A stretch of DNA of 64,000 nt from Alphaproteobacteria bacterium (GTDB taxonomy: Bacteria; Pseudomonadota; Alphaproteobacteria; UBA828), in the NCBI GenBank assembly GCA_965214705.1, contig OZ243972.1, positions 3,968,001 to 4,032,000 on the forward strand, written 5' to 3'. Below, piece after piece: positions 21,496-59,606 of this stretch. A program made the position numbers and the translations under genes. A model generated the notes under the pieces. It searched no databases and was not told the DNA's origin. It saw only the letters and a program-made list of their open reading frames with translations. Numbering within the stretch: the first letter of the stretch is position 1; each line of letters begins with the position of its first letter.

Positions 21496-21691
21496 CTTAT
21501 GGCGCAAGGCGGCGACCGGCGCTCGCAGCGGATCGAGGCGTGGGCCGAGGTGGTCCTCGCACTGGTGGACGAGACCCCGGACATGACGCTTTCGGAGATT
21601 GCCACCCATCTGGAGGACGAGCACGGGCTGCGGGTCTCCCAGAGCACCGTATGGCGCTTCTTCCACCGCCGGGGCATCACCATCAAAAACA

Positions 21692-23428
21692 GACATGGCC
21701 GGCGTGTAGCGATCCACCCCGGATGATGAAAGTCCGGTGCCTCGGTCGAGGGAATGAACGCTGCCCCTGCGTGGCATAGCGGCATTAGAGTCACGGTCGG
21801 TGGAGGCGGCACAATGGCCGTCGTTTTAGTGGTGAGCACTGCTTCCCGATCAAAAACTGGCCCCGGCCGGTCGGCTCCGAGCCCCGGATTGTTCCCGGCC
21901 GCCGAGCCGTGGACGCGCGGCAAACCGCACCGCACCCGAGGCGGGTGTGTGTTCAGTCCGACCGGCCCGTCCGCCTCCGCCTTCCCCAAGCGAGAGGTGA
22001 GATCATGAGAACCGACACACTGCACGTCGTCCATGCTCGTGCCGCCGGCATTGACGTGCACAAGATGCAGATCACCACATCGATCCGCATCTGTGCACCC
22101 GGCGGCGGCGAGCCGCAGATCGCGACGCGGACCTTCGAGGCTCTGCCCAGCGGCATCGACGAGATGGTGGCATGGATGCTCGCGCGCAAAGTCGATGCCG
22201 CAGTGATGGAGGGCACCGGCATCTACTGGGTGGCACCGTTCGAAGCGCTGGAGGCGGCCGGCATCTCCGTGGTGCTGGTCAACGCCCGGCAGGTCAAGCA
22301 GCTGAAGGGCCGCAAGACCGATGTGGCGGACAGCGTCTGGCTGGCGCGGGTCTGTCAGTTCGGTCTGGCAAGCCCCAGCCACGTGCCGCCCAAGGCGTTC
22401 CGGGAGATGCGCGCACTTACCCGCTACCGGCGCGCCCTCGTCGGTCAGCGCAGCCGGGTGCGCAATCGGGTGCAGAAGGTCCTGGACCGCAGCGGCGTGC
22501 GCGTCGGCGGTGTCCTCTCCGACGTCTTCGGCACGAACGGGAGACGGGTTCTCGACGGCTTGGCTGAGGGGCTCGGACCGGACGCCATCCTGGCCTCGCT
22601 CAGCCACCATGTGGCGCACAAGGTCGAGCGGCTCGGCGACGCCCTCAGCCTCTCCCTCAGCGCTGCGGACCGCCTGATCCTGTGCGATCTGCTTCGCGAG
22701 CACGATGCGCTGGAGGAGCGCATCCAGGGGTTCGACCGGGCCATCGACGATGGCTTCGTGCCCTGGGAGGACCGCATCCTGCTTCTCCAGACCATCCCCG
22801 GGATCGACCGGGCCTCGGCCTGCGCCATCCTCGCCGAGATCGGCCCCGACCTCGACGCCTTCGGCTCCACTGATCGGCTTGCCGCATGGGCCGGTCTCTG
22901 TCCCGGCAACAGCCAAAGCGCCGGAAAGCGCCGTGCCGCCCGCACACGCATGGGCAGCAAGACCCTGCGCGCCGTGCTCGTCGAATGCGCTCATGGCGCG
23001 GCGCGAACCCATGGCTGCCAGTTCCGCGGCTACCACAAGGCTCTCATGATCCGACGCGGTTACAAGCGGGCCATCGTCGCCACCGCGCACAAGATGCTGC
23101 GGGTCCTCTACGTCGTGTTGCGCGACGCCAAGCCTTACTACGATCCGGAAGCCGACTACGAAGCCCTCATGGTCAGGCGAAATGCCCCGCGCTGGATCCG
23201 CATGCTCCGCCGGCACGGCTTGCTCGAGCCCGGTCGTATCCCAACTGCCATGGCCGCGACCGCCTGAAGCATTACCTGGTCGGAGCACGGTCGGCACCGG
23301 GCCACAATCCAGGGCAGCCCGAAGTCCGACCGCGTCTCCAAGCACCGCGAGCGCGGCCTCACGCCGACAACGCGACGCCTCGTCGTAATTCCCCTACTCG
23401 TGCCCGTCCCGAAGAAACTTTCACGGCA
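21692..23428 (+). mobile_element. IS110-family element #1 (recombinase 22005-23267) with ~310-nt left non-coding end
   Basis: DEDD motifs GIDVHK, MEGTGIYW, KTDVADS; SQSAG serine; CA core at 21690-21691 and 23427-23428; no TIR or TSD. Confidence 0.93.
21800..21990 (+). ncRNA. Putative bridge RNA of IS110 #1 (approximate limits)
   Basis: CGTCGTTTT (21819-21827) + hairpin AGTG-GTGAG-CACT + ATCAAAAAC (21849-21857) match the two halves of the insertion site. Confidence 0.8.
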
Positions 23429-24076
23429 AAACGGCGCACGCCAGCGAGCAGCAACGCGCTGACGTGCTCAGGCGCAGGCGCGCCTGGGTCGAAGCCCAGC
23501 CCGGGCTCGACCCTGAGAAGCTGGTCTTCGTGGATGAGACCGGTGCTTCCACCAAAATGGCGCGGCGCTCAGGCCGAGCTTTGCGCGGACACCGCTGCCG
23601 CGCTCCGGTGCCTCATGGCCATTGGAAGACCACGACCTTCGTCGGCGCGCTGAGGCTGAGCGGAATGACCGCGCCCATGGTGCTCGACGGCGCCATGCAC
23701 GGCGCCGCCTTCCTCGCCTACGTAGACAAGGTGCTGGTGCCCATCCTCAAACCCGGCGACATCGTGGTGATGGACAACCTTCCCGCCCACCGAAGTGCCG
23801 CCGCCCGAGAGGCTATCCAAAGGGCCGGGGCCGAGCTCCGCTTCCTGCCGCCCTACAGCCCTGACTTCAACCCGATCGAGATGGCATTCTCCAAGCTCAA
23901 GGCCTACCTCAAGCGACGCGCCGCCCGCACCGTCCCGGAACTCTGGGACGCCATCGGCCAAGCCACAGACACCTTCACACCCGCCGAGTGCCAAAACTAC
24001 TTCGCTGCTACAGGATATGACCACGTATGATCGGATAGTGCTCTAAAAGGTGAGATATGCGCGTCGCTTAGCGCGC

Positions 24077-25789
24077 CTAACCTAAGTCTGTCGGCCTAAC
24101 AGAGTCTGCGGCAGGAAGCTCCAATCGGAAACTTGCGCCGACAATGGCGCCCGCACCGTCGCGCCGGTTGACGCAACTCAGCTGGCCGCCGTGGGCCTCG
24201 GCGATCTGGCGCGAGATGCTGAGCCCCAGGCCGGAGTGGGCACCGAACGGCTCTCCTTCGGGACGGTCGGTGTAGAAGCGCCGGAAGATTGCCTCCTCCA
24301 TGCCGGCCGGCACGCCGGGGCCGTCATCGTGGACGCTGACCATGACCACGGCGCCGTCCCGGCGGAGCCCGAGCGTGATCGTCCCGCCCAGCGGGCTGAA
24401 CGAGCGGGCGTTGCTGATGAGGTTCTGGAGCACCTGGGCGAGGCGGTCCTCGACGCCGAGCACCACGAACGGACCCTCGCCTTCGACTTCGACTCGTATG
24501 GCCGCGGGGGCCTCGCCCATCGAGGCGGCAGCGCTGTGCATCTCGGCGAGCGTTGCCAGCATGGCACCGACATTGACCGGCTCCAGCCGGGCACGGAACA
24601 GTTCGGTATCGATCTTGGAGGCGTCGGCAATCTGGCTGAGCAGCCGGTCCAGCCGCTTCACGTCCTCGCCGACAAGCGCCAGCAGCTTCGCGCGCTTCTT
24701 CTCGTCATCGACGCGCTGAGCGGTATCGACGGCCGTGAGCACGGAACTCAGAGGATTCTTCACCTCGTGCGCGACGTCGGCGACGAAGCGCTCGATCGCG
24801 TCCATGCGCACCCAGAGCGCCTCGGTCATGTCGCGTAGCGCGCCGGAGAGGCGCCCGATCTCGTCGTTCCGCGCCGTGAAGTCGGGAATTGCCACCTTGC
24901 GCCCCCCGCCGGCGCGCACTCGCTCGGCCGCTCGCGCAAGCCGGCGCACGGGCCGGGTGATCGTGCCTGCGAAGTAGAGGCTGAGGAGGATGGTGATCCC
25001 GAGCGCGATGCTGAACGCCTGGAGGATGGTGAATCGGGCGTTGCGCACGCTCTCCAGCACGTCGTTGGCATCCGCCACCAATAACAGGGCGCCCTGAATC
25101 CGGCGGAACGGCTGGATCGGCGCGGACACGACGGCGACCAGCCGGGCGTCTTGCGTTCTGTGCATGGCGCGCCCGGCGGTGCCCTGCAGCGCGCTCAGCA
25201 CCTTCGGGAAGTCGGCCGCCTGCGGGTTGAGCGGCTCGATGTAGAGCGGCACTGTCGTGCGCGGGGGCAGCCGCGCGGTGATCCAGTCGTAGGCCGCGTC
25301 CGCCGCCCGGCCGAGGACGCCACGGCCTTCCTCCGGGGGCGGCAACTCCGTCGTCTGCACCGGCGCCATCGGCAGCCGCCATGAATCGACGGCGAGGGTC
25401 CCATCGGCGTTGAAGAGCAGCGCGCGCGTATCGACCGGCAGGTTCAGGCGGTAGATCAGGGTCGCAGCGTCGGCCGGGCCGAGACCCGCTTCCGACGGGC
25501 TGGTGGTGTCCACCGCGCTTTCGCCGAGCGCAGCAGCCAACAGGGTGGCTTCGCGTGCAAGCGCGTCCAGCCTGTCGTCCATCAAATCGCGCTGCATTTG
25601 ATCGAGATAGAAGAAGCCCGCGACCAGCACCCCCAGAGCCATGACGTTGATGGCGAGGATTCGGGCCGTCAGCGGGAAGCCGATGCGCGGCCGCCGGCCT
25701 CGGCCGGCCTGCGCCCGGGGAGCAGTCGGCGCCGCCTTCAGATCGTCTTCGACCCGATCACGGCGTGGTGTATCGGTAGCCGACACCAT
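24077..25789 (-). CDS. chvG: Sensor histidine kinase ChvG/ExoS
   Basis: [13 protein letters not shown] domain, [33 protein letters not shown]; downstream of chvI. Confidence 0.9.
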
Positions 25790-26447
25790 AGAGCGTCTCG
25801 ATCTGCGAGAAGGCCGGATCGATGGCCCTGAACTTGTTGCGGATGCGCTTGACGTGACTGTCGATGGTGCGGTCCTCGACGTAGATCTGGTCGCCGTAGG
25901 CGGCATCCATCAGCTGGTTCCTGCTTTTGACGTGGCCGGGTCGCTGGGCCAGCGCCTTCAGGAGCAGGAATTCGGTCACCGTGAGGGAGAGCGCCTTGCC
26001 CTGCCAGGTGCAGAGGTGACGGTCCTCGTCCAGCACCAGCGCGCCCCGCACCATGAGCGCGGTCCCGTCGGCACTCTGGGCCGGCTCGGCACGCCGCAGG
26101 ACCGCCCGGATCCGCTCAACCAGAAGGCGAATCGAGAAGGGCTTGGTGATGTAGTCGTCCGCGCCCTGGCTGAGCCCATAGAGCTGGTCGTCCTCGGCAT
26201 CCTTCGAGGTCAGGAACACCACGGGGAGCGTCGAATGCTCCCGCAGCTGGGCGAGCAGCTCCAGACCGTCCATCTGCGGCATCTTGATGTCGAGAATCGC
26301 GAGGTCGACCGGCCGGCTCAGCAAGTCCTGCAGCGCCTTCACCGAGTCGCTGTGGGGCCGGACCACGAAGCCCTCCGCCTCGAGCGCCATGGTGACCGAG
26401 GTGAGCAGGTGCTGGTCGTCGTCGACCAGCGCGATGGTCGCAGGCAC
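25758..26447 (-). CDS. chvI: Response regulator ChvI
   Basis: [41 protein letters not shown]. Confidence 0.93.
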
Positions 26448-26526
26448 CGTATCCCTCCTCCTCCTGCGGCCGCCCCAAGTATGGCTTCACTGTGGCGATT
26501 TTAGGGCGCCGGATCGGCAGGTCACG

Positions 26527-27909: not shown

Positions 27910-27973
27910 GGCGCCGGACCTTAGCCCGGAATTCTCACCAAGGTCATGGATTGCTGCCGCGGAGGCAGCCCGT

Positions 27974-32342: not shown

Positions 32343-32363
32343 CCCTGGCGGAAGGAAAGACCC

Positions 32364-39472: not shown

Positions 39473-39506
39473 TGGCCCGCTCCCGGAATTGACATCATGG
39501 CGCGAC

Positions 39507-43203: not shown

Positions 43204-43928
43204 CGCCTTGGGTTCTTGCACCGGAGACCTCGGTTCGAGCCGTCGCGACATGGGCGCCGGCACGGTGGCACGAGCATGCCGGCGCGGTCATCCCGTTTCT
43301 TGCGGTCGCGAATCGGCGCCGGGCACTGCGTTGGCGTTCTTGTCCTTTGTCTGTGCGTAAGGACCGTCAAACCACCCGGAGCTTCACCGGCGTTCTCCCA
43401 GCGTCGATGAAAGATCGGCCGATGCGATGAGCAATGGGCTTGCCGTCACTCACAGCCGCTCCGTTGGAGAAGAGCTGGCGTGCCGCTGTGATCCAGAAGG
43501 GGTCTGCGGCGTCCTTCTGGTGGGGGATCAGGCCGCTGCCATCGTGCCGATGCACGCCCGCCGGCGCGAGGGGCTTACAAGTTTCCCCCTGCGGCCTCTT
43601 TGAGGATCTGCTTGTCCAACGTCAGATCGGAGAGATCGTGTCCCGCCTCGTGGTGTAGGAGCCTGGCTTCGGCTGCGGTATCCGGCGGGTGGGGCCGGGA
43701 CGCTCAGGCTGCCACGACGGGCAACTTGACGGTGAGAGTGTCGCTCACGGGGGCGACGGATTCCAGTGTCATGTATCTCCTTGAGACGGCCCACTCGTCG
43801 TTCTGCTCAAGCAGCACGGCGCCGACCAGGCGGGTGATGGCGTCTTCGTTGGGGAAGATGCCGACGACGTTGGTTCGCCGCTTGATCTCGGCATGCAGCC
43901 GCTCGATAGGGTTGGTAACCGGTATGAA

Positions 43929-46024
43929 CCCATCTTTGCCATTTTGGCGCGCGCCTGCGACCTAAGTAGTTGCGATGATGGGCTGATTTTCTGGCCCATC
44001 TGGGATTATGGCACTACGTTTGTGCGCTCATCGCGACACTCCCGGGAGCACCGCCCGGCGCCTGTGGGGATCCACCGTGAGGCCCGCCGCCTGCGCGATG
44101 ACGCGCGCCTCGGCGTCGGGTTGAGCATCCTGGCGGATGACGATGCGGTTTCCGTCCACCTCCCGGATGGTGGAGGTGAGACGCACCCAGCCCGCGAGCT
44201 TGTCGCGGATCGTACTCCAGCGGTCATGCAAGCCGTGCGCCGCCAGACGGGTTCGCAGCAGATGAACCGCGTGGTAGGCGAGGACGGCGATGAACAGGTG
44301 GGCGGCGATGCGCGAGGTCTTGGAGTGCCAGACCGGGCGCAGGCCGATTTCGGATTTCAGGCTGCGGAAGGTGGCCTCGAGCTCTGTGAGCTTCCAGTAG
44401 GTTCGGACCACGGTTTCAAGATCCCACTCGACGTGGCTGGTGCGCAGCACATAGATGCCCGCTTGGCGGTCGCGCTCGGCATGGAGAGCGTTGCGCCTCC
44501 AGCGGACCGCACTGGCCCGCCCCTTCTCTCCGGGCTCGACCTCGATGTCGTACTGACGGTGGACGCGCCTGTACCTTTCCTTCAGCCGGCCCAGCTTCTC
44601 CATCACCTTGGTGAACTGCTTGATGTGGTTCTTCTTCGACAGCCCGCCATGCAGGGCGCGCAGGGCGTCCTCGAAGTTGTGACGCTGACGGGCGAGCACG
44701 GCCTCGTCCTTCTGCTGGCGCTCATGGCTCCAGACGCACAGGTGCGCTTCGTCGTCCCCTGCCGCGAGACGCCAGGCGCGGGCATCGTGGCCGGCCCGGG
44801 TTTCGAAGGCGGCATCGGCTTCGCGCCCGGGCGGCGCCGAGACGCCGCGGCGAACGGTGATCCAGTGATAGCCGCCCGCCCGCAGCCAGGCGAGGTTGGC
44901 CTCGGTGGAGATGCCGGCGTCCATGATGACCGTGGGCCTGGGGGCGTTGCTGCCGCGCGCTTGGCATTCCAGCCGCCCGATGGCGTCGGCGAGAGTGGCC
45001 GGCTCGGAGATGTTGCCGGGCAGGATCTCGCTGTGCTGCGGAAAGCCGGCCTGGTTCAGCGACAGGGCCAGGGTCACGATCGGACAATCGTCACGCCTCT
45101 GCTTCGAGCGCCCGAAGCGGGCCAGCGCGGAGCTGGGCCGTCCGGTCATATGGGTGTTGGTCAGGTCGAAGAAGACGATGGTGTCGGGGATGCCGAAGAG
45201 ATCGCGCTCCCGGGCGCACAGCGCCTCTTCAAGCGCCGCGCGGTGACGCCACAAGAGGTCGCCGATGCGGTAGAGCTTGCTGAGCGTGAGCGACTTGCCG
45301 CTGTCGACATCGAGCAACTCCAGGGTCGCGCTGTTCGCGCTCAGCCAGCGGAAGGCCTCGCGCTCGCTGGAGGGATGGATCATGCGCGCGACCACCAGTG
45401 CCGCCGCGATGCGTGCGTCGCGCTCACTTGCGCCCAGCCTCTCCAGCGTCTCGATGAAGCGAAGGTCGTCAAGCGCGGCGAGAGCCAGGCGCTCGCAGCC
45501 CACCGAGCGGACCTGTTCGTGGGAGAGGCTATCGAGACGGACCGTGGCCAGGTCGCTCTCGTCCCCGGGCCGCGACGCGCCGAGATCGCGGGCGTGAAGC
45601 CGCCGTACGACGTCCTCGGCGACGGGGCGCAAGGCGGCATCCGGCTCCAGCAGCGGCTCGCTGCCGGCGAGAAGGGTTTCGATCAGAAGCGCCAATTCGC
45701 GCCATTGCTCCTCGGGCACACCGAAGTCGGCGCCGAGATTGAGGAGCGTGACCTGGCGCACCCTTCCGCCGATGCGTTCGCTGCGCACGAGGCGGTAGGT
45801 GGCATAGCGCTCGCCACCGTCTCCGCGACCGGTGAGGGTTTTGCGAATGAACATGGCGGCAGGGTCACGGACAGTTTGCGGACTGTCAAGGAGCGCCGGC
45901 CCACAGACCAAAGATTATGGCACTACAATGGACTTCCCAAAACACAATCCAACAAAATCAGTGCCTTAGATCCCAAAGGCTACCCAAAATCAGGCCTTCG
46001 GGACCGAAAAGTGGCAAAGATGGG
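43929..46024 (-). mobile_element. IS1634-family insertion sequence (transposase about 45853-44028)
   Basis: IRs CCCATCTTTGCCA; TGAA duplicated; FFDLTN, VIMDAG, YWKLTELEATFRSLK, LRPVWH. Confidence 0.9.
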
Positions 46025-46119
46025 TGAAGATGTCGGTGCCGCTGTCTCCGTCGTGGTCCTTGGGGCTGTGACGTATGGTGCGACCATCCGGGACAAGAGG
46101 CACCGGGAGCACGAAGGTG

Positions 46120-46230
46120 CGGGCAGGCCGGTCCACACGATGAGCTGCGAGCTCGTGTTAGTAGCTGGCCGCCTCTGCGACTCGCCCGGTTGCGCCGAGA
46201 GCGCGGATCCGTAGGTGTCGTGTTGCCCGC
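46120..46230 (+). ncRNA. Putative bridge RNA of IS110 #2 (approximate limits)
   Basis: Two guide-hairpin-guide loops matching target (46134-46162) and donor (46186-46212) junctions. Confidence 0.65.
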
Positions 46231-49200
46231 CGCTCCCGTCACGCAAACGACAGGAGGCGCGGAATGCGACGTGTCATCGGCATCGACATCCACCGGACCT
46301 TCGGGGAGGTGGTGATCTAGGAGAACGGGGCTTTGCAGCACGCCGGCCGGGTGGATATGACCCGCACGGGATTGGAGGGCTTCGGCAAGGGCCTGCGGGC
46401 GACGGACGAGGTGGTGATCGAAGCGACGGGGAACTGCATGGCAGTCTCGCGTGTGCTGTCGCCCTTCGTGAAGCGGGTGGTGATCGCCAATCCGTTGCAG
46501 GTGAAGGCGATCGCGCACGCCCATGTGAAGACCGACAAGGTCGACGCGGGGACGCTGGCGAGCTTGTACGCGGCGGGGTATCTGCCCGAGATCTGGACGC
46601 CGGATGCGGCTACCGAGCGGCTGCGCCGGTTGGTGGCGCGGCGCTACCAGGTGGTGCGCCACAGGACGCGGCTCAAGAACGAGGTGCATTCGATCCTTCA
46701 TGCGCATCTGATCCCGAAGTGCCCGCACGCGGACCTGTTCAACCGGCGGGGGCGGTCGTGGCTGTCGCGCCAGCCCTTTCCCGACGACGAGCGTGCCGCG
46801 ATCGAGCGGCACATCCGTGAGCTTGATCGCCTGGGCGAGGACCTCGACCTCCTCGACCGCGAGATCGCGGAGAGTGCGCTGGACGATGCGGCGATCAAGC
46901 GGCTGATGACGATCACCGGTGTCAATCTCACCGTCGCGGTGGGACTGATGGCGGCGATCGGCGACATCGCCCGCTTCTCTTGCCCGCAGAAGCTGGTGAG
47001 CTACTTCGGCCTCAACCCGCGTGTGCGCCAGTCCGGTCTCGGCGCTGCCCACCACGGGCGGATCAGCAAGATCGGCCGCAGCCATGCCCGGACGATGCTG
47101 GTCGAGGCCGCCTGGGCGGCGGCAAAGGCCCCGGGGCCATTGCACGCCTTCTTCGTCCGCATCCGCGCCCGCCGCGGCCACCAGGTCGCCGCCGTCGCCG
47201 TCGTGCGCAAGCTGGCCGTCCTCTGCTGGCACATGCTGACCAAGGAGGAGGACTACCTCTGGGCCCGCCCGGCACTGGTGGCCAACAAGCTGCGCGCCAT
47301 GGAGCTGCAGGCCGGCAGGCCGCAGCAAAAGGGGAACCGGCGCGGACCGGCCTACGCTTACAACATCAAGGCGCTGCGCGACCAGGAGATCGATCTCGCC
47401 CGGCAAGCCGAGCGTAGCTACGAACGCTTCGTTGGCAACTGGCGTCCGCGCAAGCCACGGGACGGGGCGCGCGGACGCCTCAAGCCGGCAAGGCCTGAGT
47501 GAGGCAGCCCGGCGGCGCTTTCAGCCGCAGCGCCGCTCTTCGCCACGAGGTCGCCCGCGCAACCGACATCCTGCCACGGCCTCGAAGAAAGCGCTTGTCC
47601 ATCTCATCCGTCGAGTGCAGCTTGGTTCGGTGCTCCCTGGGGAAAGTCATGTAGGCCAGCACGTCGTGCTCGGCCTCGTCCATGAGGGTGGCGAGCTTGG
47701 GCGCCTTGGGCCTGAGCTGGTCGGCGACCAGGCGCCACTGGGCGCTTGCGGCCTCGGCGTCGTCCTGGGCGAAGGCGGTGGCGACGAAGGCAGACACGAC
47801 ACGCCGGCCCTGTCTGCCGGCATGGGCGAGCAGATTGCGCATGAAGTGGATGCGGCATCTCTGCCAGGTGGCGCCGAGGATGCGCCTGGCGGCGGCCTTG
47901 AGCCCCTTGTGGTCGTCGGAGATCACCAGCTTGACGCCGCCGAGCCCGCGCCGGGTGAGCGAGCGCAGGAACTCGGTCCAGAAGGTCTCGGCCTCGGACG
48001 CGCCGATCGCCATGCCAAGGACCTCGCGCCGGCCCTGGTCGTTGACCGCCACCGCGACGGTGACCGCGACCGGGACGATGCGCCCGGCCTCGCGCACCTT
48101 CACGTAGGTGGCATCCAGCCAGAGATAGGGCCAGTCTCCCTCCAGCGGGCGGTCGAGGAAGCTCCTGATCTTGTCGTCGATCTCGCCGCACAGCCTGGAC
48201 ACCTGGCTCTTGGAGATGCCGCTCATGCCCATCGCCTGCATCAGGTCGTCGACCGAGCGGGTCGACACGCCCTGGATGTAGGCCTCCTGGATCACCGCGG
48301 TCAGCGCCTTCTCGGCCATCCGACGCGGCTCAAGGAAGCCCGGGAAGTAGCTCCCCTTCCTCAGCTTCGGGATCTTCAGCGCCACCGTGCCCGCGCGGGT
48401 CTCCCAGGCCCGCTCGCGGTAGCCGTTGCGGTGGGTGATCCGCTCCGGCGAACGCTCGCCATGCGCAGCCCCGGTCAGCCCTTCCACCTCCAGCGCCATC
48501 AGACGCTCGGCCGCGAAGCCGATCATCTCGCGCAGCAGATCGGCGTCGGAACTCTTCTCCAAAAGCCCGCGCAGGGCCATCATGTCCTCGGTCATCGTGG
48601 TTCTCCTCGGTATCGGGTTGGCGTTGCACGACCCAACCCTAATCCGGAACCGCGATGGCCTCCGCTGTGGATAAGCAGCCCGCCGCCGCCAGACTCGCGG
48701 CGGTCGCGGCGGCGGGCTGCTTACCCACAGCTACCAACCGAAGCCAGAGCTCCTACACCACGCTTGGGGACACGACCATCGGAGACCGCACGGCGCAGCC
48801 GCTCGTTCTCCTTCTCGAGCTCCTTCAGACGACGAAGCTGATCGCCGCTCATCCCGGCGTACTCCTTGCGCCACCTGTAGAACGTGACTTCGCTGATCCC
48901 GAGCTGCCGGATCGCGTCCGCCATCGACGCTCCCTGACCGTGCAGAACCTCAGCCCGCCGCAGCAGGCTCACGATCTCCTCGGGCTTGTAACGCTTCCTT
49001 GCCATCGTCGGCCCTCCTCTTTCCATAACCTAAGGGTGGACCAATTCGATGGGAGAGGATCATCAGGGTGGGAGATGTCCGGTCGTCTGGCGCCCCGGCT
49101 TCCGCCATTCCATCGTCGTGCCTCGCAGCCACCTCAAGCGCGGGCGGGCCGTCGTGCCCGTCGCTTGCCTTCACTGACGGCTCAGGAGCGAGATACCCGC

Positions 49201-49822: not shown

Positions 49823-52800
49823 CTATCTGATAAGGCGCTTGATTTCGACCGAAGCTGTGATCGTTCCCCCCTTCACGTATGCCTCGTGATTGCGCTCGAT
49901 CGCCCTGGGATCGTAAAGATAGTTGACCATCAAACCGGCTGATTGCGAAAGGCCCTTGGCCGATACGTCGCCGAGCCAGTTGATCCGCTCGAGGCGTGCC
50001 CCGTTGCGCAAGTGGAAGCGGGCAACCGGATCCAGCGGCCGCCCGCCCGATCCGACCTCCAACAGATAGCGTGCGCAAAGCCGCGTCAACGGTCCCTGCA
50101 TCTTCTCGGTGGCCTCTTCATTTCGGTGCCAGGAGGCCAGCGACAGGTGATCGATTGCCTCTGCCTCGTTTCCGGAGAGCGTATCGTCCGCTTTTCCGAC
50201 CACCGAGTTCAGCCATGCGCTGAACCCCAGGATCGGCGAAAGCGTTGCAAAGGTCTTCAAGCCCGGCAGTTCGTGAGCGAGTTCCACCACCACCTGCTTG
50301 ATTAGGAAGTTGCCGAAGGAAATGCCGACGAGCCCGGCCTGGCAATTGTTGATAGCATAGAAGACCGCCGTGTCGGCCTCCCCGGGATCGATTGTGCCTT
50401 CCGGAGCATCGATGAGCGTTTGCACCGCACTCGTCATTCCGCGTACCAGCGCCACCTCGACGAAGATCAGCGGCTCGCCCGGCAGCGCGGGGTGAAAGAA
50501 CGCAAAGCACCGCCTGTCTTCGGCAAGGCGGCGTTTGAGATCCGACCACCCCGACATCGGCTGCACTGCCTCGTAGCTCATGATCTTTTCCAGGAGCGTT
50601 GCCGGGCTCTCCCAATCGATCTTTTCCAGGTGGAGAAAACCGCGGTTGAACCAGGAGGTGAGCAAGTGCACGAAGTCCGCGTCGATCGCCTTGAGCGACG
50701 CGTCGTCCGTCAGCATCTTCAACGTAAGCGGTATCGGGCCCCCATACTTCCAGCGGATCTGATTTCGGGGCTGACTCTCCGCCTTGACCACGAGCCACAC
50801 AGGAGAGATCGCGATGACAGATTCGATTTTGGCATCTGGCGACGGTGTCGCTGTTGCTTCGGTTGAGATCCCAGCTTCTGAGGGAGCCGCCCCGGCTCCG
50901 TCTGAGCCGGCCCCCATGCGACGCTGGCCGGACGATGAGAAGGCGCGGATTGTCTCGGAGAGCTTTGAGCCGGGCTCTTCGGTTGCGGCGGTCGCGCGCC
51001 GCCATGGCGTCAGCGATACGACCCTGACCAAGTGGCGGCGGCGCGCGCGGGAGGGAACTCTTCCGGGCGCTCGGATTGGTGGCTCTGCACCGCCATTTGT
51101 TCCCGTGGTGGTTGATAGCGTGACGTCCGAGCGGACGGTGGCGATCGAGGCGCTAGGCGTGGTCGTTCGCCTTCCGGTGGAGAGCGCGGTCGATCGGATT
51201 GTTGCGGTGGCCTCGGGCCTGGGCCGGGCGTCGTCATGATCGCGGCCCCCTCGCTTCGCATCGTGTTGGCGACGCGGCCGGTTGATTTTCGTCGCGGCCA
51301 CGACGCGCTTGCGGCGACGGCGGCGGGGGAGCTGGACCTCGATATCTATTCCGGGGTGATCGTGATCTTCCGCTCGCGCCGCGGCGACAGGCTCAAGCTC
51401 CTTGCGTGGGACGGCAGCGGTCTGGTGATGACCTACAAGCGTCTGGAGCAGGGCCGCTTCGCCTGGCCTCGGATCGAGGATGGTGTGATGCGCCTTACGA
51501 AGGGCCAGTTCGAGGCCCTCTTCGAGGGTCTGGACTGGCGCCGGGTGAAGGCCCGCCCGGTTCGCCGCCCGCTGGCGGCGGAGTGAGGCGGCACGCAGGC
51601 GGGGCCGCAGATTTCGGTCGCGGTCCCGCCTGCACTTTTCCCTGGTCATGCATTGGCGAATCGGATTAAGGGGTGGCCCATGCCGAAGGTCACGCCCTCA
51701 CCCCTCAGCAGCGCCGGTTCGCCGTCGCCTGCGGTGGTTTCGGCGGCGCTGGCGGCCCTGCATGCGGAGCTTGACGACGAGCGCGCGGCGCGCCGGGCGA
51801 CGGAAGCAGCCCTATGCGAAGCGGAGCAGGCACGCGGCGCGGCGGAGGCGGCGAGGCAGACGGCGGAAGCGCGGGCGGCACGGCTGGAGGCCGAGAACGC
51901 GCAGAGCGCGGAGCAGATCAGCCGGCTTGAGCATCTCAACAAGGAGCTCAGGAAGGCGCTGTTCGGTCCGCGCTCCGAGAAGCTCGGCGAGGACGAGCGC
52001 CAGCTTACGTTCGAGGAGTTTTGGGCGGCGATCGCTGAAGCCGGCGGTCGGCCCGAGGCAGATGACCAGGAGCAGGACGAGGGGGCTGGCGGCAAGCGCC
52101 GGCGGCGCTCTTCCCGGGGGTCGCGCAGCGGGGTGCGCTTCGGGCCCCAGGTCGACCGGCGCGAGGAGGTGATCGAGCCGGACACGATCATGTGCCCCTG
52201 CGGCTGCGGCGAGATGACGAAGATCGGCGAGGACCGCAGCGAGCGGCTGGACTATGAGCCGGCGAAGTTCACCGTCATCGAGACCGTGCGCCCCCGCTAC
52301 GCCTGCAACAAGTGCAAGGGGGGCGGGGTGGTGCAGTCGCCGGCGCCGGCCGCTCTGGTCGAGGGCGGCCTTCCCACCGAGGCTCTTCTGGCGCAGGTGC
52401 TGATCGCGAAGTACGGCGATCATTGCCCGCTCTATCGCCAGTCGCAGATCTACGAGCGCTCGGGGATCGAGGTTCACCGTGCGACGCTGGCGACGTGGGT
52501 GGGCCAGGCGTCGTTTCACCTGCGCCCCGTGGTCGCTTGCCTGGAGGATGAGCTGAAGAAGTCGGATCACCTGGGTCTGGACGAGACCACGATCCGCGTT
52601 CTCGACCCGGGCCGGGGCAAGACGAAGACGGGCTACATGTGGACCCTTGTGCGTGACGAGCGCCACTGGAGCGGCACGGACCCGCCGGGCGTCGTCTATC
52701 GCTATGCGCCCGGCCGCGGCGGCAAGTATGGCGCCGAGCTTATGGAGGGCTTTTCGGGGACGGTGCAGCTCGACGGCTACTCGGGCCACAACATCCTGGC

Positions 52801-53899
52801 GCGGCCGGACCGGGCGGAAGGCCCTGTGACGCGGGCCCTCTGTTGGGCGCATGTAAGACGGAAGCTGAAAGAGGTATACGACTCGAGCGCATCGCCGATC
52901 GCGCTGGCCGGTCTGAATCGGATCGCGAAGCTCTATGCGATCGAGAAGAAGATCCGGGGCAAGCCGCCGGCGGAGCGCCGCGCGATCCGTTGGGAGGAGT
53001 CGGCGCCGATCGTGAACACCTTCGGTGTCTGGCTCGACGAGCAGCGCTCGCGCGTCTCACCGCGCTCGCGTCTCGGCGAGAAGCTGACCTATATCGCCAA
53101 CCAGTGGGACGGGCTGCTGGAGTTCCTGCACGACGGTCGTGTCGAGATCGACTCGAACCTGGTGGAAAACCGAATCCGGCCGCTGAAGCTCACCGCCAAG
53201 AACGCGCTCTTCGCCGGCAACGACGAGGGTGCGCAAGCCTGGGCCCGCATCGCCTCGCTGATCGAGACCTGCAAGATGAACGGCGTCGAGCCCTACGCCT
53301 GGATGCGGAGCACGCTCGAGAAGATCGCCAAGGGCCACCCGCAGTCGGGCATCCAGGAGCTTCTGCCGTGGAACTTCCAGCCCGAGGCAAAATGACTCGC
53401 GCGCTCACGGCGCTCCTCAAGAAATCCCCGTCGTAGTCAAGCCAGATTCCGGTATGGGGTCTGCGTACCGCTTACTCTTCAACAGGTCCGCGCGCATAGT
53501 CACGATGGTCGAGGTGCCATTGGGCGCCATGTTGATGCGTCGGATGAGCTCCTGCCGGGGCGGCTCAACCGCTGCGCTGAGCGCCACGAGGGTGTCGAAG
53601 CCAGGCGCAGCCCTGTAGTCCTCGCTTGCCGCATGGATCGCCGCCGGGTCCGGACCATAGTCTGCCGCCAGCGTTGCGAAGAAGGCACGCTTCTCCACCG
53701 GGCTCATGGCGCGATAGGCATCGGCCATGTCCCGTGCCAGAGCCGTTCCAGATGCTTCGCCCCGCGTGGAAAGCAGCGCGTCACACAGCGCCGCGGGCGA
53801 TCGCGCGCGCAACCTTCCCGTCGACGATCCGCGCCGCAGGAGCTCGCGGCCGGCATCCGCCACGGAATTGATCACCTGGTTCAACCGCGATGACCTCAT
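49823..53899 (-). pseudogene. Malonyl-CoA decarboxylase split by IS66
   Basis: N-part RGEASG...EPPRQELIRRIN; C-part SWFNRGFL, YEAVQ, GISFGNFLIKQVV, DPVARFHLRNGA; in frame once the IS and one TSD are removed. Confidence 0.92.
50724..53475 (+). mobile_element. IS66-family element: tnpA 50814-51239, tnpB 51236-51586, tnpC 51680-53395
   Basis: IRs GTAAGCGGTA; 8-bp TSD TCTTCAAC; PVDFRRG (TnpB); LDETT, CWAHVRRK, IDSNLVEN (TnpC). Confidence 0.96.
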
Positions 53900-55381
53900 G
53901 CCTCTTCAAGTTCCTCCTCGGATGGCGACGCTCGGTCTACCGTGTGGGGTGGGTTCGCCAAATCGGCATCGCACCCTGACAGGTGAAGGAATACGTGGGG
54001 GCCGACGGCGGTACGGACAAGGTTAAGGGTTGGGCAGGCTCTCTCTCGAGAGCCTGCCCAACCCTTTTGAACGAAGCCGCGGGCCACGAGAGGCGAAGTT
54101 GAGCTATGTGGAAAGTGCGCTGATGTCAGCGTCAGGCGGCATCCACCGGCAGCAGAGTTGCGCATAAAATCGACGCTCGCGCCGGTCTTTCGGCAGGCAT
54201 GCGGGCGCACGCTGCGAGGACTGAGCGGGGTGTGAGCCGAGGGCTGTCAGCCCGGCTCAAGCGGAGACAGGTTCGGTCGTGCGTCGGCGCTTTGGCGCCG
54301 TTGCGCGGGGCCGAAGCGAGCGGGCGTCTCACGGTTTCCCCCTGTGGGTCGGCGGCAGCGCCGGCGGGCCGCGCGTCGAGCGGGGCTCATGGCGGCGGCG
54401 GATTTCGCGGACGAGGCGCATGACGCCGCCGCAGTGGGGGCAGGCCACGGGCGCGGTGCCGATCTCGGGCTCTTCGTCGGGCTCGGCCTGAGCGCCGTCC
54501 ACGCTTCCCTCGGGGGCGGCGCAGCCGAGGGCGCCGAGAGCCTGGCGTGCTCTCTCCAGCGTGCTGGCGCGGCAGCCGTTGGCGAGGATGCCGAAGTAGC
54601 GAATGCGGTGCATGCCGTCCGGCAGGACGTGCCTCAGGAAGCGGCGGATGAACTCGTCGGCGCTCACGGTGGCGATGCCGTAGCGCGGCTTTCTCTGCCC
54701 CGGCGCCTTGGGCTTTCGGTGGCGGAAGGAGACCGTCTCGCCGTCGAAGGAGACGATGCGGCTGTCGGAGATGGCGATCCTGTGCGTGTAGTGCGAGAGG
54801 TACCGGAAGACCTGCTCAGGCCCGCGGAAGGGCCGCTTGGCGTAGACCACCCAGTCCCTGGCCCGGGCGGCGGCAAGCGTGGCGTGGAACTCGCCGGGAT
54901 TGGCGAGGTGGGCGACGGTGCCGTGGAACTCCAGGTCCCCCCGGCCGTGGGCGCGGGCGAGCTCCTCGAGGAAGAGGCGGCGGAACAGGCTGCCGAGGAC
55001 CTTGACGGGGGCGAGGAAGGTGGTGCTCCCCGTCTTCCACTCGCCACTGTCTACGTCGAAGCCCGCGTTGGGCACGACCACGTGCAGGTGCGGGTGGAAG
55101 CGGAGCTTCTGATCCCAGGTATGGAGGACCGCGGTGCCGCCGATGCGCATGCCGCCGTGGCGGGGATCGGCGGCGATGGTGCGCAGGGTCTCGGCGACGG
55201 CCCGGAAGAGGATGTCGAACACCACCCTGCGGTTGCAGAAGGCAATGGCGGCAACCTCCTTGGGCAGGGTGAAGACCACATGGAAGTAGGGCACCGGCAG
55301 GATGTCCCCGGCGCGCTCCTCGCTCCAGAGGTTGGCGGCGAGACCCTGGCAGGTGGGGCAGTGGCGGTTGCGGCAGGAGTT

Positions 55382-57031
55382 CTTATGAGCTCTCTCCGCA
55401 AGGCCCGGCTTCATCTACGTCAATGGCATTCGCAATCTCTCCACTCGAATCCGCGGCCGATGTCCAGGCAGAACGTCGTTTCCACGCAGCGATCCGCCAC
55501 GCTGCTCAGCTCTTATCCGGTTCGGAACTCCGGCGCTTGCCGGCTCCGTGACCCCAATACCGCATCCAAGCGGTGGTGACGTTCCGGGAGGCGGGACCCA
55601 TCTGTAGAACGGTGCCAAGCGGCGACCCAACTCTTGCCCGGTCACACGCCTTGCCCGGCATCCTCCGCGGCCGCGTCCGACCACGTCGGAACCTCCTGTA
55701 TTTTCCCGTTCGTTCGGCCGGTGCCCTCAGGAGACGATGGCGCCCTCAGGCACCAGTCCTTGGGTGGCATAGCGCCACAGCGCGATCAGCAGCTTGCGCG
55801 CGACCCCCACGATCGCCCGCTTCCTCGCTCGCCGGTCCCTCCCGCCACCGGCATCCCTGGCGACGTAGGCGTGGAACCACTTCGTGATCGCGCTTTCCGG
55901 TTGCAGCTTCAGCCAGCGCCAAGCCATCTGGATCATGTGCTTCCTGACATGCGAGGGGCCGGCCTTGCTGATGCCAAGATCGTGGTCGACATCTCCGCTC
56001 GCCCACGGCACCGACGTCAACCCGGCCCAGCTGCCCAACTCCCGGCGATTGCGGAAGTCCCGATAGAACACCTCGCCAGCCAGCAGTGTGGCGTCATTGA
56101 GGCCGATGCCATGGATGCGCGTAAGCGCCGCGATCATCGCCGTCCCGTCACGATTGGTCGCGTCCTGGGCTTTCCGGCCAGCCTTCAGCAGGGCCCTCTT
56201 CTCGGCCTCGATCATCTCGATATGCTCCTCAACCAGGCGAAGCATCCCCACCGCCCTCTCAATCTCTGCCCGCGCACGCGGCGGCAACGGCGCCCCATAG
56301 CCCGTCCGCGCGGTCGCGAGGCGTTCGAGGAAGTCCGGCTTGCGCGGCGCCAGATCGAAGATGCCGTGCAACTGCAAGAGCCCTTTGATCCGGTTGTTGA
56401 CGCGGGTACGCTCGCTGATCAGCGTGTCCCTCTCGCGCAGCAGGCGCTTGGCATCCTCCTGGTCCACATCGGGCACGCGCACCCAGGACATGGCCTCCGA
56501 ATCGCCTTGGTCCCATGCCTTCAGAGCCCGAACCATCCTCCTCGCGTCGATACGGTCGGTCTTTTTCTTCTTGGCGCGCCGGTTCACCCGCAGGCTCGCC
56601 GGATCGTTCATGAAGATATCGATCTCCGCGTCACGGCGCTCGATATCGCGGGCAAGCCAGAACCCCTCGTAGCCCGCCTCGTAGGTCAGCATCACCCGAG
56701 GACGGGCGCCGAGCTCCCTCGCCACCCGTTCCCGCACCGACCCGACGAGATCCAACAGTCCCGCCGTGTCGGCAGCAGCCAGTGTGTGGATGCTGATGCT
56801 GCCACCCGAGGCATCCGGGCAATGCACGCCAACGATCCACGATTTGAGGCTGATCTCCACCGCGACATAAATCGTGCTACTACTTGCGCCTGTCAGCGCG
56901 GTCGTGTCTGGACCATCCGACATCCGTCCACTCCGTTGTTGACGATTCCGCTCGGAGAGAAGGTGCTGGCCTTCTCTCCGAGCTTGTCTAACCGCCAGAA
57001 TCGATTCGGTGCCACCGTGCTCATGGTATCT
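55382..57031 (-). mobile_element. IS110-family element #3 (IS1111-like layout, long downstream non-coding end); recombinase 56923-55727
   Basis: YVAVEIS, TYEAGYEGFWL, KTDRIDA, WASG, GVARKL; empty site visible in IS91 copy 1 at 5311-5330. Confidence 0.9.
55490..55660 (-). ncRNA. Putative seek/bridge RNA of IS110 #3 (approximate limits)
   Basis: Target-matching 55638-55628 and 55612-55603; donor-matching 55561-55556 and 55516-55510; each pair separated by a hairpin. Confidence 0.7.
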
Positions 57032-57041
57032 GAAGAGCGGA

Positions 57042-57437
57042 GTGCGCCAGGCGAACTGGTGCGAGTGCAGTTGGTGAAAGTCCAACAGGAAGGAGAAGGT
57101 GAGCCACCACTTCCACCCCGAGTCATGGGCCGTCGCTCGCGAGGGCGAGGGTCAAGCGTTGACAGGGGCGCGTGTGGGCGGGGCTATTGAGCACCGAAAG
57201 AAACATCATCCGGGATGCCGAGGCTCTTTCGTTGGCCGAAGGTCGCATCTGGCCCACCGATATGGCGAGGGGGGTCTGAATCCCGCGGTGTCAGAGAACC
57301 CACGCACGTACGTACGCACTGCACCGGGACCTGGGAGGTCTCCATGTCATCCCGCTGAGTCGTGGCGGGAACGCTGAGGAAAGGAGGAGTCCGTAACCGA
57401 AGATGAACGACATGGAGAAATCAGACTCGGCCATAGT
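57042..57437 (+). ncRNA. Group II intron A, 5' part (domains I-II and start of III)
   Basis: Starts GTGCG exactly where IS91 homology stops; GGTGAAAGTCC, GCGAG loop, GACCTGGGAGGTC, GAGAAATCAGACTCGGCCATAGT; candidate EBS1 TTCGTT (57228-57233) pairs with AGCGGA. Confidence 0.85.
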
Positions 57438-59606
57438 GTGTGCTGGGCAGCGCCCAGATCAGGTGGGTTCAAGTCCCACTGGCGCTCGGGTAAGGGGCGC
57501 CATATCCAAAAGTGGGGGTAATTCCTCACTGGCCGGAGTGAGCCGATAAGCGAAACTCTAAACGGGCACGAAGCCGGAAACGGCGGAGACAGCCAAGGGA
57601 GGAGCTAAGTTGGTCCACTGTCGAAAGACAACCGGAAGGCAGGGTGTCCACCGCGAGGTGGAATCTGAAGGGCTTGCGGAGAAGTACCGGGCCGTAATCG
57701 AGGGGGCCACCCCATGATGAATCGGTCGGCCAAAGACGGGGCAAGGTCGAGCCGGCACTATGGCGGCGAAGGCGTTCTTACCCACCCGTCGCACCAAGGT
57801 GTTTGCGAGCGGCACGGTACGGAAGATCTGGACGTGACCCCAGGAGGGTGTGATTCTCGTATGGCGATATGCCAGTCGTGATGGCGCTAAAGGATATGGG
57901 CTGGTTCATTTTGGTCAAGCAGCGAGTGCCAGGACTTCGGTTGGGCTGATGTTGTCGTTAGCTGGTCCGGATCGGGCGTCCATGAGCGCATCCCATGCCC
58001 GGTCGAAGAGGCCGGATTTGATCAGGGCGCGGAAGGTCAGAACCGCCTGCCCGCCGTCGATCCGCCAGCGCATGCCCGAGCGTTTCAAGCGCTGCGCGAC
58101 GAGGGTCTTGCAGGCCGCCTCGACCACACCCGAGCCGATGGCGATGCCCTCTTCCTTCAGGGCGTGGTAGCGCATCCGATGGCGGTGCTTTCGGAAGAAG
58201 GCCAGTTCGCGCTCGATCTCGGCCGGGTCCCCCTTTGCCCTGTCCAGGAGGTAGCGCAGTGCCCGGATCACCTTGTCGACGCCGCGGGGGTCGTGGCGCA
58301 GGATTTCGCGGTGCTTCTCGAACCAGTGGCGCGCCACCGCATGGTCAGAGGCCACGCGGAGATGCTCGCAAGCGTGCCAGAAGTCGATGACCTCGGTCTC
58401 GGGCGAGAGGCTTTCGAGGAAGGTCCAGTTGTCGGCGGCCCCGTCGGCGACGGCGCCGATCCTGATCTTCGGGCTCACACGGCGGATATGGGCGACCTCG
58501 CTTGCAAGTTGCGCTTTCAGCGCGGCCTTGCCGCTCTCGGGCATACGGCCGAGATAGAGGGTCTTCAGCCGTTGGCCCTCGGCGTCGTGGAAGGAGACCG
58601 TGCCGCAAGAGGCCTCGCGCCAGCACGCCTCGGCACGGCCGTCCTCGCCGGCCCGCAGCGCCACCATGACGCCGTCAAGGGAGACGGACGCGGTGACCGC
58701 ATCGGGCGGTATGCCCTGGGTTTCACGGATGCTGGCCAGCGTCTCCGGGGCGACGCTCTCCCAGTGCTCATGCATGCTCAGGGCCAGGCGCTGCAGCGTG
58801 CTCACCGACGGCGTCATTCCGCCCATTTTCGCGAAGAACTCCTCCGCTTCACGCGGCGTACAGTGGCCCATCATCATCAGCCCGAGCTGCGCCGCCGGCC
58901 GCGTCAGGTAGTCGTCGATGAGGCCCAGGCTCTCGTCCACCGGCACCAGCGACGTGCTGCTCGCGCCGCTGCGATAGCGCGCACGCCGATAGGTCACGGG
59001 ACCGAGCGTCGTCATGATCGTCTTCGGCGTCGCCGCCACCCGGACCCAGCTCTGTCCGTCGCGCTCGATCCGGCTCGCACCGTCGTCGCGGCTCTCGGCG
59101 AAGGCCCCAAGGAGCTTGCAACCCAAGCCGTTCATGGCGTCCCGCAGCCCCGTCTCAACCGTTTCGAACGTCTCGGCAGACGGGTCAGACCCAGCCTGTT
59201 CGCGACAGAACTCCACCACCTGGGCGACCGCTTCGGCGACTTCGGCAGGCAGGCCCAAAAGGTCGATGGACGAGGCGATGAGAGACTGCGACACTGGCAT
59301 GGGAACGCTCCTGATGTTGGGTCTGATGTTGGGTTGTCGGCGCGGCATCCTACCGCATCTCGCGGTGCGGAGCGTTCCCACCCACCACTGCTGGATGCCG
59401 CCGTTGTGACAAAATCCGGCCCTGCACCGGCCGATTGTCACGAAAACCCGATTCTGGCTGCCTACGGCCACCCGCCAATCGCGCTAAATCAATGACTTAC
59501 GATCGCCATGCCAGACCTCCAGACCTACACCCCCCCAGGAGGGCTCGCCGCGTTCCCGGGTGGCACCGGGATAACGGACCCTATAAGCCGAAAGGCGAAA
59601 TGGGAA
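57438..59606 (+). ncRNA. Group II intron B, 5' part, nested in intron A, split by an IS and cut off by IS1595
   Basis: Starts GTGTG; GGTTCAAGTCC; EBS1 ACTATGG (57757-57763) is the exact complement of the 7 nt before it; resumes at 59541 after the IS. Confidence 0.82.
57846..59532 (-). mobile_element. ISKra4/ISLre2-like (IS256-related) insertion sequence, transposase 59300-57915
   Basis: IRs GGGTGT(G/A)..TCT; 8-bp TSD CCCCAGGA; SLDGVM, VADGA, IDFWHACEH, IGSGVVEAACK. Confidence 0.9.

Follow-up and report, generated by a model that had tools for sequence, protein, structure and literature searches.

Two kinds of mobile element, one RNA-guided insertion sequence (IS) family and the bacterial group II introns, provide the closest described parallels to the locus analyzed here. 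IS1111-group elements with a seekRNA or bridge RNA include ISEc11/ISXne4, ISKpn4/ISPst6 (at attC), ISPa11 (at repetitive extragenic palindromic, or REP, sequences), and IS4321/IS5075 (at Tn21-family inverted repeats), and published accounts describe both the targeting of other mobile DNA (Tn21-family inverted repeats, attC) and the natural reprogramming of guides among close relatives (PMC11187229, PMC11208160). In IS621/ISEc21, of the IS110 group, the bridge RNA lies in the left end of the element, with the left-target guide 5' of the right-target guide (PMC11208160, PMC11187229). Among group II introns, RmInt1 of Sinorhizobium meliloti lives in an insertion sequence, the homing sites reported for bacterial group II introns are either intergenic or in other mobile elements, and a role in controlling how far the host element spreads has been discussed (PMC4238363, PMC4181065, PMC3035460). 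Bacterial twintrons are known from the group II introns of thermophilic cyanobacteria (PMC2882425). Here we examine a 64-kb window of an alphaproteobacterial genome (the whole stretch analyzed, C1:3968001-4032000; positions within it carry the prefix w, and C1 and C3 are contigs of the same genome) in which three IS110-family elements (IS110-1, IS110-2, and IS110-3) and two group II introns (A and B) all lie inside other mobile elements. It is probable, in our judgment, that four of these five are nested because they recognize, by base pairing, short sequences in multicopy transposase or intron DNA, and the data support targeting that is sequence-specific and repeated rather than a by-product of IS density.

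All five nestings, which a first-pass annotation had proposed, are real, and their junctions can be read (Table 1). The most informative is that of the 1650-bp IS110-3 in an IS91-family element with about 95 copies in the genome. The reference IS91 copy in the window (w3957-6625) encodes a tyrosine recombinase and a Y2 transposase and reads ...GCGGCAGGAGTTGAAGAGCGGATGCTCGCG... across the insertion region; in the interrupted copy, IS91 is cut after GGAGTT at w55381/55382 and continues with GAAGAGCGGA from w57032, so that the insertion is scarless apart from a 1-nt overlap. Read along the transposase strand, the element separates TTC from AAC in HPLF/NSCRNRHC and so interrupts the FNSC zinc-finger codons, as had been claimed. 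IS110-3 matches PF01548 (31.8 bits), PF02371 (45.4 bits), and NF033542 (173.6 bits, cut-off 140), and has non-coding ends of 108 nt upstream (left) and 348 nt downstream (right) of the transposase gene. Its termini read AGATACC-ATGAGC... and ...GCTCAT-AAG, in which the 7- and 3-nt extensions fit the IS1111 group and the inverted repeat is only 6-8 bp. Genome-wide the family has 21 members, 19 of them at the same IS91 nucleotide and two in IS21 istB genes. At the 19 exact right ends the next sequence is GAAGAGCGGA of IS91 in 18 and GGATCTCC of istB in one, all 19 left ends stand behind GGCAGGAGT(T/A), and there is one orientation throughout. In three IS110-3 copies an IS66 element is present.

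Many copies at one site could also reflect hitch-hiking, in which one insertion is multiplied by movement of the host element in trans, by recombination, or by gene conversion. Eight IS110-3 copies among the matches listed are 100% identical, a split IS91 keeps both of its ends and could be mobilized by the approximately 65 IS91 copies that are in one piece, homologous sequence extends for 1.3 kb on either side of the insertion, and the presence of intron B in all 10 A-type introns (see below) is compatible with joint movement of the two. Composite spread in trans would yield a clade of occupied IS91 copies, and repeated insertion is expected to leave a distribution that is not a clade, which is what we observe. 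Among 98 IS91 copies or pieces of at least 95% identity, 18 are split at the IS110-3 site and four at the intron A site. Haplotypes were drawn from 63 sites whose minor allele was seen at least twice, scored in 90 copies for which 2300 nt or more were covered (the window's own IS91 copy, which is in two pieces, lies outside these 90). The 17 IS110-bearing copies scored represent 13 haplotypes. Seven of these haplotypes, with 11 of the copies, match IS110-free copies at all 63 sites, and three copies belong to divergent IS91 lineages 33-45 bases away from the reference. Gene conversion among IS91 copies could mimic repeated insertion in individual copies, a point that counts against our reading. 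Hitch-hiking also fits poorly with IS630 hosts that are about 4% apart around an identical IS110-1, and real transposition to matching sequences is shown by family members whose sites are not homologous (two istB positions, an integrase, and an island open reading frame, or ORF). We therefore regard hitch-hiking as unlikely to explain the pattern.

The occupied and empty forms of the IS91 site also occur in public sequence data. Seven public runs hold 93-97% of the sampled sequence words of w55300-57100. Contigs from three of these runs, belonging to three studies, cover IS110-3 on the IS91::IS110-3 locus, and in each of the three runs one contig omits exactly 1650 nt (ends AG..AG, 1 nt ambiguous) and thus represents empty IS91; the contigs of one further run gave no 1650-nt joint. 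Because runs from three studies contain both forms, the nesting of IS110-3 is not an assembly artifact. This evidence consists of contigs, in which depth does not give copy number, and one run may be the source of the assembly. A comparison of IS110-3 DNA with 44 genomes of the same family (its own included) returned only relatives that are 64-71% identical in the coding region.

A candidate right-target guide, CGGGCAAGAGTT, lies in the downstream non-coding end of IS110-3. The copy at C3 428446-430105, which is outside IS91 and 96.7% identical, splits an IS21 istB gene; one of its flanks matches IstB_IS21 from profile position 107 and encodes GTGKS, which we read by eye as the Walker-A codons. 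The right flank of this copy is AACTCTTGCCCG, and its complement agrees with CGGGCAAGAGTT at 12 of 12 positions. At the IS91 site the complement of the right flank agrees with GGCAAGAGTT of the guide at 9 of 10. An 86% identical relative (C3 483683-485334) sits in another istB, near profile position 218. At the alignment columns of the guide it holds ...ATAGGCGT, and the complement of its own right flank is likewise ...ATAGGCGT (8/8). A guide that has changed in step with its target in this way appears, from the alignment, to be a case of natural guide reprogramming. A third variant, a 290-bp fragment, shows a partial fit to its flank. For the left target, TTCTACAGAT agrees with the left junction at 8 of 10 positions in both the main element and the 86% relative, a weak correspondence from an alignment read by eye. 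The right-target (top-strand) complement comes first in IS110-3, as for IS1111-type seekRNAs.

The pattern GGGCAAGAGTT has 21 occurrences in the genome, 20 of which are the guide itself; the other is an unoccupied, intact istB at C1:621469-621487 (253 aa, IstB_IS21 219.8 bits), whose site is identical to the perfect guide fit. This perfect istB site has been left empty while 19 IS110-3 copies occupy the mismatched IS91 site.

IS110-1 shows a similar recurrence in an IS630-family host. The element (PF01548 86.3 bits, NF033542 267 bits), with non-coding ends of 314 nt upstream versus 160 nt downstream, lies between ...GITIKN and KTAHASEQ... of the IS630 protein, in the linker first proposed as its position. 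It is found in three IS630 copies. The second copy (C1 3960001-3961737) is 100% identical in IS110-1, with IS630 protein pieces 92% and 95.5% identical to those of the window, and of the third the last 700 bp are 100% identical at C3 1700895, adjoining a 99% identical IS630 piece. The nested unit of IS630 and IS110-1 is 98.78% identical over 2545 bp, and since IS110-1 itself is 100% identical, the differences lie in IS630. A fourth copy (C1 2904825-2906561, 99.94%) has flanks of its own, although ACCATCAAAAAC recurs to its left and AAAA to its right; it stands within an ORF without a Pfam match that adjoins pieces of a phage-type integrase. In the upstream end, CGTTTT (element nt 132-137) is followed by 21 nt, which can be read by eye as a small hairpin (AGTG..CACT), and then by ATCAAAAAC (nt 159-167, 9 nt). 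Taken jointly, the two candidate guides fit the flanks better than 3000 random genomic sites, the comparison used for all guide-match p values here, at p=0.003-0.02.

A 72% relative of IS110-1, which we call E5, is present in two identical copies and carries GACAAAAC at the position of the left guide, which thus covaries with its target between IS110-1 and E5. The left flanks of the copies are ..CGACAAAAC and ..ACACAAAAC, and the two targets read ..GACAAAAC and ..ACAAAAC. One copy is in an IS630-like gene (the N-terminal ORF of the paralog has HTH_23/HTH_32, and the DDE part was read by eye), and the other splits a phage-type integrase gene. Empty paralogous E5 sites have a 2-nt AA core. The possibility that the ACCATCAAAAAC and AAAA at the fourth IS110-1 copy are element sequence was rejected, as the empty E5 sites give an AA core, and by analogy with E5 an AA core may apply to IS110-1 as well. 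Such a core (w21685-21695, 23424-23431) would make the empty IS630 site a run of six A (A6) and put the two gene halves out of register by one base, as might be expected if this IS630 undergoes frameshifting or slippage.

The two introns extend the pattern from IS110-family elements to group II introns. The GTGCG that opens intron A stands at w57042, next to GAAGAGCGGA, which places the intron 10 bp from the IS110-3 site (11 bp with the 1-nt ambiguity), in agreement with the distance first given; beyond the window, IS91 resumes past intron A at C1 4037210, after ...CGCGAT. RF02005 matches it at w57077-57300 with 172.1 bits (cut-off 49). The reverse transcriptase (RT)/maturase part of this copy is beyond w64000 and was scored in another copy of the A-B twintron, L001 (C1 795529-791409, 4121 bp), which has two RT/maturase genes and a 168-bp miniature inverted-repeat transposable element (MITE). 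There TIGR04416 scores 359.6 bits for intron A and 345 bits for intron B, and domain V/VI gives 36.1 bits with RF00029, below the cut-off of 40. Intron A is at the IS91 site in three copies, and a fourth copy has IS91 as its 3' exon. Introns related to A adjoin a Transposase_29 gene and an IS630-like gene. As to how A might recognize IS91, intron A has no exact exon-binding site (EBS) 1 or 2 complements of the IS91 exon, which leaves only a shifted EBS1 candidate, CCCGCT, that pairs with IS91 AGCGGA at 5 of 6 positions and with AGCGGG at C1 2015463 at 6 of 6. Since intron A runs antisense to this transposase gene of IS91, it could not be spliced from the transposase mRNA.

The 5' end of intron B (about 2.03 kb) is the GTGTG at w57436, which follows nt 394 of A on the same strand, so that B lies within the ribozyme part of A and before A's RT gene, a twintron arrangement. 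The only RNA-model match for B has E=0.43. Copies of B on its own begin at the same base, and their 5' flanks have C(G/A)TA in common; B has 21 5' ends in the genome, and the 12 flanks read carry C(G/A)TA or TATA/GATA/CATA just upstream. The base of a predicted 70-nt hairpin marks its site in A, which follows the EBS1 candidate by 84 nt and precedes the RT start by about 236 nt. It had been assigned to domain III of A; B does lie inside A, but the predicted fold of A without B gave no domain assignment that would bear this out. Every one of the five A copies and of the five A-related copies contains B (the A-plus-B stretch, twintron nt 2-2121, being about 94% identical), and no intron A copy without intron B was found genome-wide. 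Among the remaining 11 B copies, three precede, by 127-287 nt, the RT of a third intron type, which shares 46-49% identity with that of A (C1 3492934, C1 4166978, and C3 53182, one of which adjoins an IS66 gene); these are probably further twintrons.

A rival account would be that of density and selection, by which elements land at random in a repeat-rich genome and insertions in host genes are purged, with no need for targeting. The genome (7.92 Mb in three contigs, compared with 2.8-6.3 Mb in 20 genomes of the same genus) is indeed rich in repeats: in a self-comparison at 90% identity or more over at least 200 bp, 27.2% of bases have at least one further copy and 16.7% have at least three. 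The window itself contains IS91-, IS66-, IS1634-, ISKra4-, IS630-, IS256-, IS4/5-like, and IS110-family elements and group II introns. Nesting alone is unremarkable in this genome; single-nucleotide site specificity is the distinguishing feature. Density and selection do not account for the same nucleotide and orientation in 19 IS91 copies, three IS630 copies, and 10 A-type introns, or for a guide that covaries with its target. They also fit poorly with IS110-3 ends that abut repeats in 21/21 and 20/20 cases, compared with 27-63% for the DDE families. The remaining resolved members of the IS110-1, IS110-3, and intron families are nearly all in IS21 istB, IS630-like, phage-type integrase, or IS1634-like genes. 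We consider density and selection highly improbable as the overall explanation; they are already contradicted for IS110-1, IS110-3, and introns A and B and stand for IS110-2 only.

IS110-2 lies in an IS256-family transposase gene between the codons for KLHST and NPIER, as first read (HSTNPIER), a motif that we take to adjoin the catalytic glutamate. It is a single copy by repeat search, has an in-frame TAG at w46318-46320, 18 codons past the ATG, and is interrupted 15 bp inside its left end by an IS1634 that has 23 copies; it is dead, a fossil. The IS1634 duplicated 4 bp of target, TGAA here and GCAA in 3/3 other copies read. As one event without a guide match, IS110-2 is what density and selection would predict.

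A number of further observations weigh against RNA-directed nesting or narrow its reach. The match of the IS110-3 guide to IS91 alone is marginal (p=0.026 for 10 nt, and 0.21-0.25 at 8 and 12 nt), so the weight of the guide argument lies in the covariation, and the left-target segment of IS110-3 is not significant (p 0.8-0.99). The non-coding end of IS110-2 fits its flanks no better than random sites (p 0.7-0.99). In IS110-1 the right-target complement is 5' of the left-target match, the reverse of the reported order in the IS110 group. Rfam scans of the window, at the gathering threshold and at E<0.1, matched no bridge-RNA family, intron A being the sole match, and in minimum-energy predictions shuffled sequences fold as well as the three guide regions do (z -0.95, -0.79, and 0.05). 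The two public RNA runs found hold just 5-6% of the sampled sequence words. Repeated sequence flanks 27-63% of the ends of other elements genome-wide (IS91 42/91 and 35/94, IS66 24/38 and 28/46, IS1634 9/21 and 8/22, ISKra4 7/26 and 7/24), and IS1634, ISKra4, IS66, IS91, and the 168-bp MITE are also found inside the IS110 and intron elements, among them IS110-2, IS110-3, and introns A and B. One copy of intron B splits a hydantoinase B gene. Finally, a 10-copy IS110 family has no common flank or target motif and abuts repeats at only 2/10 left and 4/10 right ends. Its copies (C1 682658-684392 and nine others, 1735 bp, identical, PF01548 84.6 bits) would be odd for a guide-directed family. These elements belong to a larger set, with 54 PF01548 matches genome-wide; all three IS110-family transposases of the window match PF01548, PF02371, and NF033542, and the flanks of IS110 clusters 2, 4, 6, 7, 9, and 10 were resolved in part.

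Measured against these results, the first-pass annotation was largely right in what it observed, and its interpretation, RNA-programmed hyperparasitism of transposons, is partly supported: right in kind, overstated in generality and in claimed function. Site-specific insertion holds for IS110-3, IS110-1, and the introns, and does not extend to the 10-copy IS110 family, to B in the hydantoinase B gene, or to IS110-2. A readable guide or EBS had been proposed for every element; such segments exist for IS110-3 and IS110-1, whose right and left guides, respectively, covary with the target in relatives, with a 5/6 candidate in intron A, but in IS110-2 the fit is that of random DNA (p ~0.9). The same order of target-matching segments, proposed for all three IS110-family elements, is seen in IS110-1 and IS110-3 and not in IS110-2. 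IS66 does disrupt a host gene, encoding malonyl-CoA decarboxylase; for the IS91 at w54018, said to do likewise, no disrupted host gene was found, and the proposed contrast with DDE elements is weaker than stated, as these too are nested. Insertion mostly in host genes or unrelated positions, which would have favored density over targeting, is not seen for IS110-3; a pattern of that kind appears in the 10-copy IS110 family, with 6/10 right and 8/10 left ends in unique DNA.

The mechanism that we favor can be set out as follows. The genome would be in, or just past, a massive IS expansion. The downstream non-coding end of IS110-3 would give rise to a bridge or seek RNA, as expected from its family, and a 12-nt segment of this RNA would pair with the top strand to the right of the insertion point; the guide would be perfect for the Walker-A codons of istB and have one mismatch for the zinc-finger codons of the 95-copy IS91, which would have been entered repeatedly. 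IS110-1 would behave in the same way at the linker codons of IS630, intron A would retrohome into IS91 10 bp away from the IS110-3 site, and intron B would home into intron A and related introns to produce twintrons. IS110-2 would be the decayed remnant of a similar event in IS256. Under this mechanism the non-coding ends are presumably transcribed and act as guides, and sites in mobile elements may be favored for their abundance and because insertion there does the host no harm. Such a system can fairly be called hyperparasitism, and a safe haven in mobile elements, already proposed in the literature for group II introns, is a reasonable inference.

Whether nesting also serves the host is a separate matter. 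The elements might act as an adaptive brake, kept by host selection because they knock out transposase genes and curb the IS burst. Their targets are functional motifs (the IS91 zinc finger, the IstB Walker A, and the IS256 motif presumed to lie by the catalytic glutamate), 18 of the 98 IS91 copies or pieces carry IS110-3 and four carry intron A, and the title of PMC4238363 raises a like idea for RmInt1. About 65 IS91 copies are nevertheless uninterrupted, IS66, IS1634, and ISKra4 have no fixed-site targeting, and conserved motifs are equally the most stable targets for a selfish element. We find a brake quite improbable, and the suggestion that the elements damp a burst is an idea without support here. 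A bolder extension of the favored mechanism, which we offer tentatively as a possibility, is that a bridge-RNA IS lineage has specialized as a parasite of transposable elements, with IS110-1/E5 and the two introns behaving alike, in a multi-level food chain that measurably erodes IS91. Under this extension the guide would have been rewritten at least two times (for two istB positions, and effectively for IS91 through a one-mismatch, near-cognate site), and the targets would be codons of the most conserved motifs, which a host element could hardly mutate away.

Table 1. Features of the nested elements in the window (positions are w coordinates)
Feature	Position	Strand	Basis
IS630-family host, 5' part (ends ...GITIKN)	21501..21690	+	translation, repeat limits
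IS110-1, IS110-group layout, transposase w22005-23267	21691..23427	+	profiles, copy alignment; ends uncertain by 2-5 nt
IS110-1 candidate right-target guide CGTTTT	21822..21827	+	complement of right flank
IS110-1 candidate left-target guide ATCAAAAAC	21849..21857	+	equals left flank up to junction
IS630-family host, 3' part (KTAHASEQ..., DDE_3)	23428..24045	+	profile match, translation
IS256-family transposase gene, C-terminal piece (NPIERLH...)	43704..43913	-	translation
IS110-2, first 15 nt of left end (last 4 are a copy of the IS1634 target duplication)	43914..43928	+	junction reading
IS1634-family element in IS110-2 left end; TGAA at 43925-43928 and 46025-46028	43929..46024	-	repeats, profiles
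IS110-2, remainder (1580 nt), transposase w46264-47502	46029..47608	+	profiles, repeat search
IS256-family transposase gene, N-terminal piece (...KLHST)	47609..48730	-	profiles, translation
IS66-family element splitting malonyl-CoA decarboxylase gene (w49826-50722, w53420-53905)	50723..53475	+	profiles, repeats
IS91-family host element, most of Y2 transposase gene	54018..55381	-	repeat limits, translation, profile matches
IS110-3, IS1111-group layout, transposase w55727-56923	55382..57031	-	profile matches, end mapping, public contigs
IS110-3 possible left-target/handshake segment TTCTACAGAT (weak)	55600..55609	-	alignment read by eye
IS110-3 right-target guide candidate CGGGCAAGAGTT	55629..55640	-	flank matching, relative alignment, random-site test
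IS91, 10 bp (GAAGAGCGGA) separating IS110-3 from intron A	57032..57041	-	comparison with intact IS91
Group II intron A, 5' 394 nt, antisense to IS91 transposase	57042..57435	+	RF02005, exon comparison
5' portion of group II intron B within intron A, interrupted by ISKra4	57436..57848	+	copy alignment
ISKra4-family element inside intron B (approximate ends)	57849..59532	-	repeats, profiles
Intron B, 74 nt more	59533..59606	+	copy alignment
4.49-kb insertion in intron B, runs to w64096	59607..64000		repeat comparison

The nesting at the right of the window forms a chain: IS110-3 and intron A are in IS91, intron B and an IS1634 are in intron A, and ISKra4 and a 4.49-kb element with a 1.2-kb IS are in intron B. 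The 4.49-kb insertion has an 8-bp duplication, includes a gene for a family-25 glycosyltransferase in addition to the 1.2-kb IS, and is a second copy of sequence from C1 2114258-2122762, which holds two IS91 copies; it may be an uncharacterized transposon. The 168-bp MITE-like repeat, also with an 8-bp target duplication, is at C1 793242-793409 (inside intron B) and about 26 other places. Elsewhere in the genome, two different IS110 elements stand side by side at C1 1325755-1329002 and jointly split an IS1634-like transposase gene (of a 62-copy element) at residues ~186/189. Within the window, w35363-37749 carries genes for a TrwC relaxase/helicase and a PIN-domain protein, with repeats 90-97% identical elsewhere, which look like remnants of conjugative elements.

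Several aspects of the locus seem to be new: coding motifs of IS91, IS21, IS630, and IS256 as targets, a burst at a near-cognate site, and the convergence of several parasites on 22 bp of IS91. Our literature search, which lay outside supplements and subscription journals, found no published IS110 insertion in IS91, IS21, or IS630 genes, and supplementary target tables may list some. The genome supplies natural, replicated data on bridge-RNA targeting, with 19 one-mismatch insertions, one perfect-site insertion, and an identical perfect site left empty, and in addition a close relative that has a rewritten guide and a different insertion point within the istB family. Such data are relevant to the rules by which bridge recombinases, now under development as genome editors, act off target and are reprogrammed in nature, and to the interplay of mobile elements during IS expansion. 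A 2026 preprint describes insertion at sites that match only half of the bridge RNA, which resembles the one-sided match found here.

Compared with the systems described above, IS110-3 most resembles the IS1111 group, sharing a DEDD transposase, a short left and a long right non-coding end, the absence of a target duplication, short inverted repeats with unequal extensions (about 7 and 3 nt) beyond them, a top-strand complement 5' of a bottom-strand match (the latter weak here), guide reprogramming, and targets in mobile DNA. It differs in that its target is coding sequence (the IS91 zinc finger, the IstB Walker A), in a guide mismatch at the most used target, and in inverted repeats of 6-8 bp rather than the 11-13 bp reported (PMC11187229). 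IS110-1 is like IS621/ISEc21 in its long upstream non-coding end, a top-strand left-target match, a right-target complement, and scarless insertion with a short core; unlike them, its right-target complement precedes the left-target match, and its target is the linker of IS630 rather than a REP sequence. Intron A shares with RmInt1, whose host we take to be ISRm2011-2 of the IS630 family, a homing site within another mobile element. It differs in being antisense to the transposase gene of its host, IS91, and in an EBS1 candidate that fits two non-IS91 sites better than IS91. Introns A and B resemble the cyanobacterial twintrons, in that the ribozyme part of one intron houses a second intron of like orientation, in many copies per genome, but here B is present in all 10 A-type copies, in at least three copies of the third type, and at other sites. 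That mobile elements home into mobile elements is already known as a concept, and this genome is an unusually rich natural example of it.

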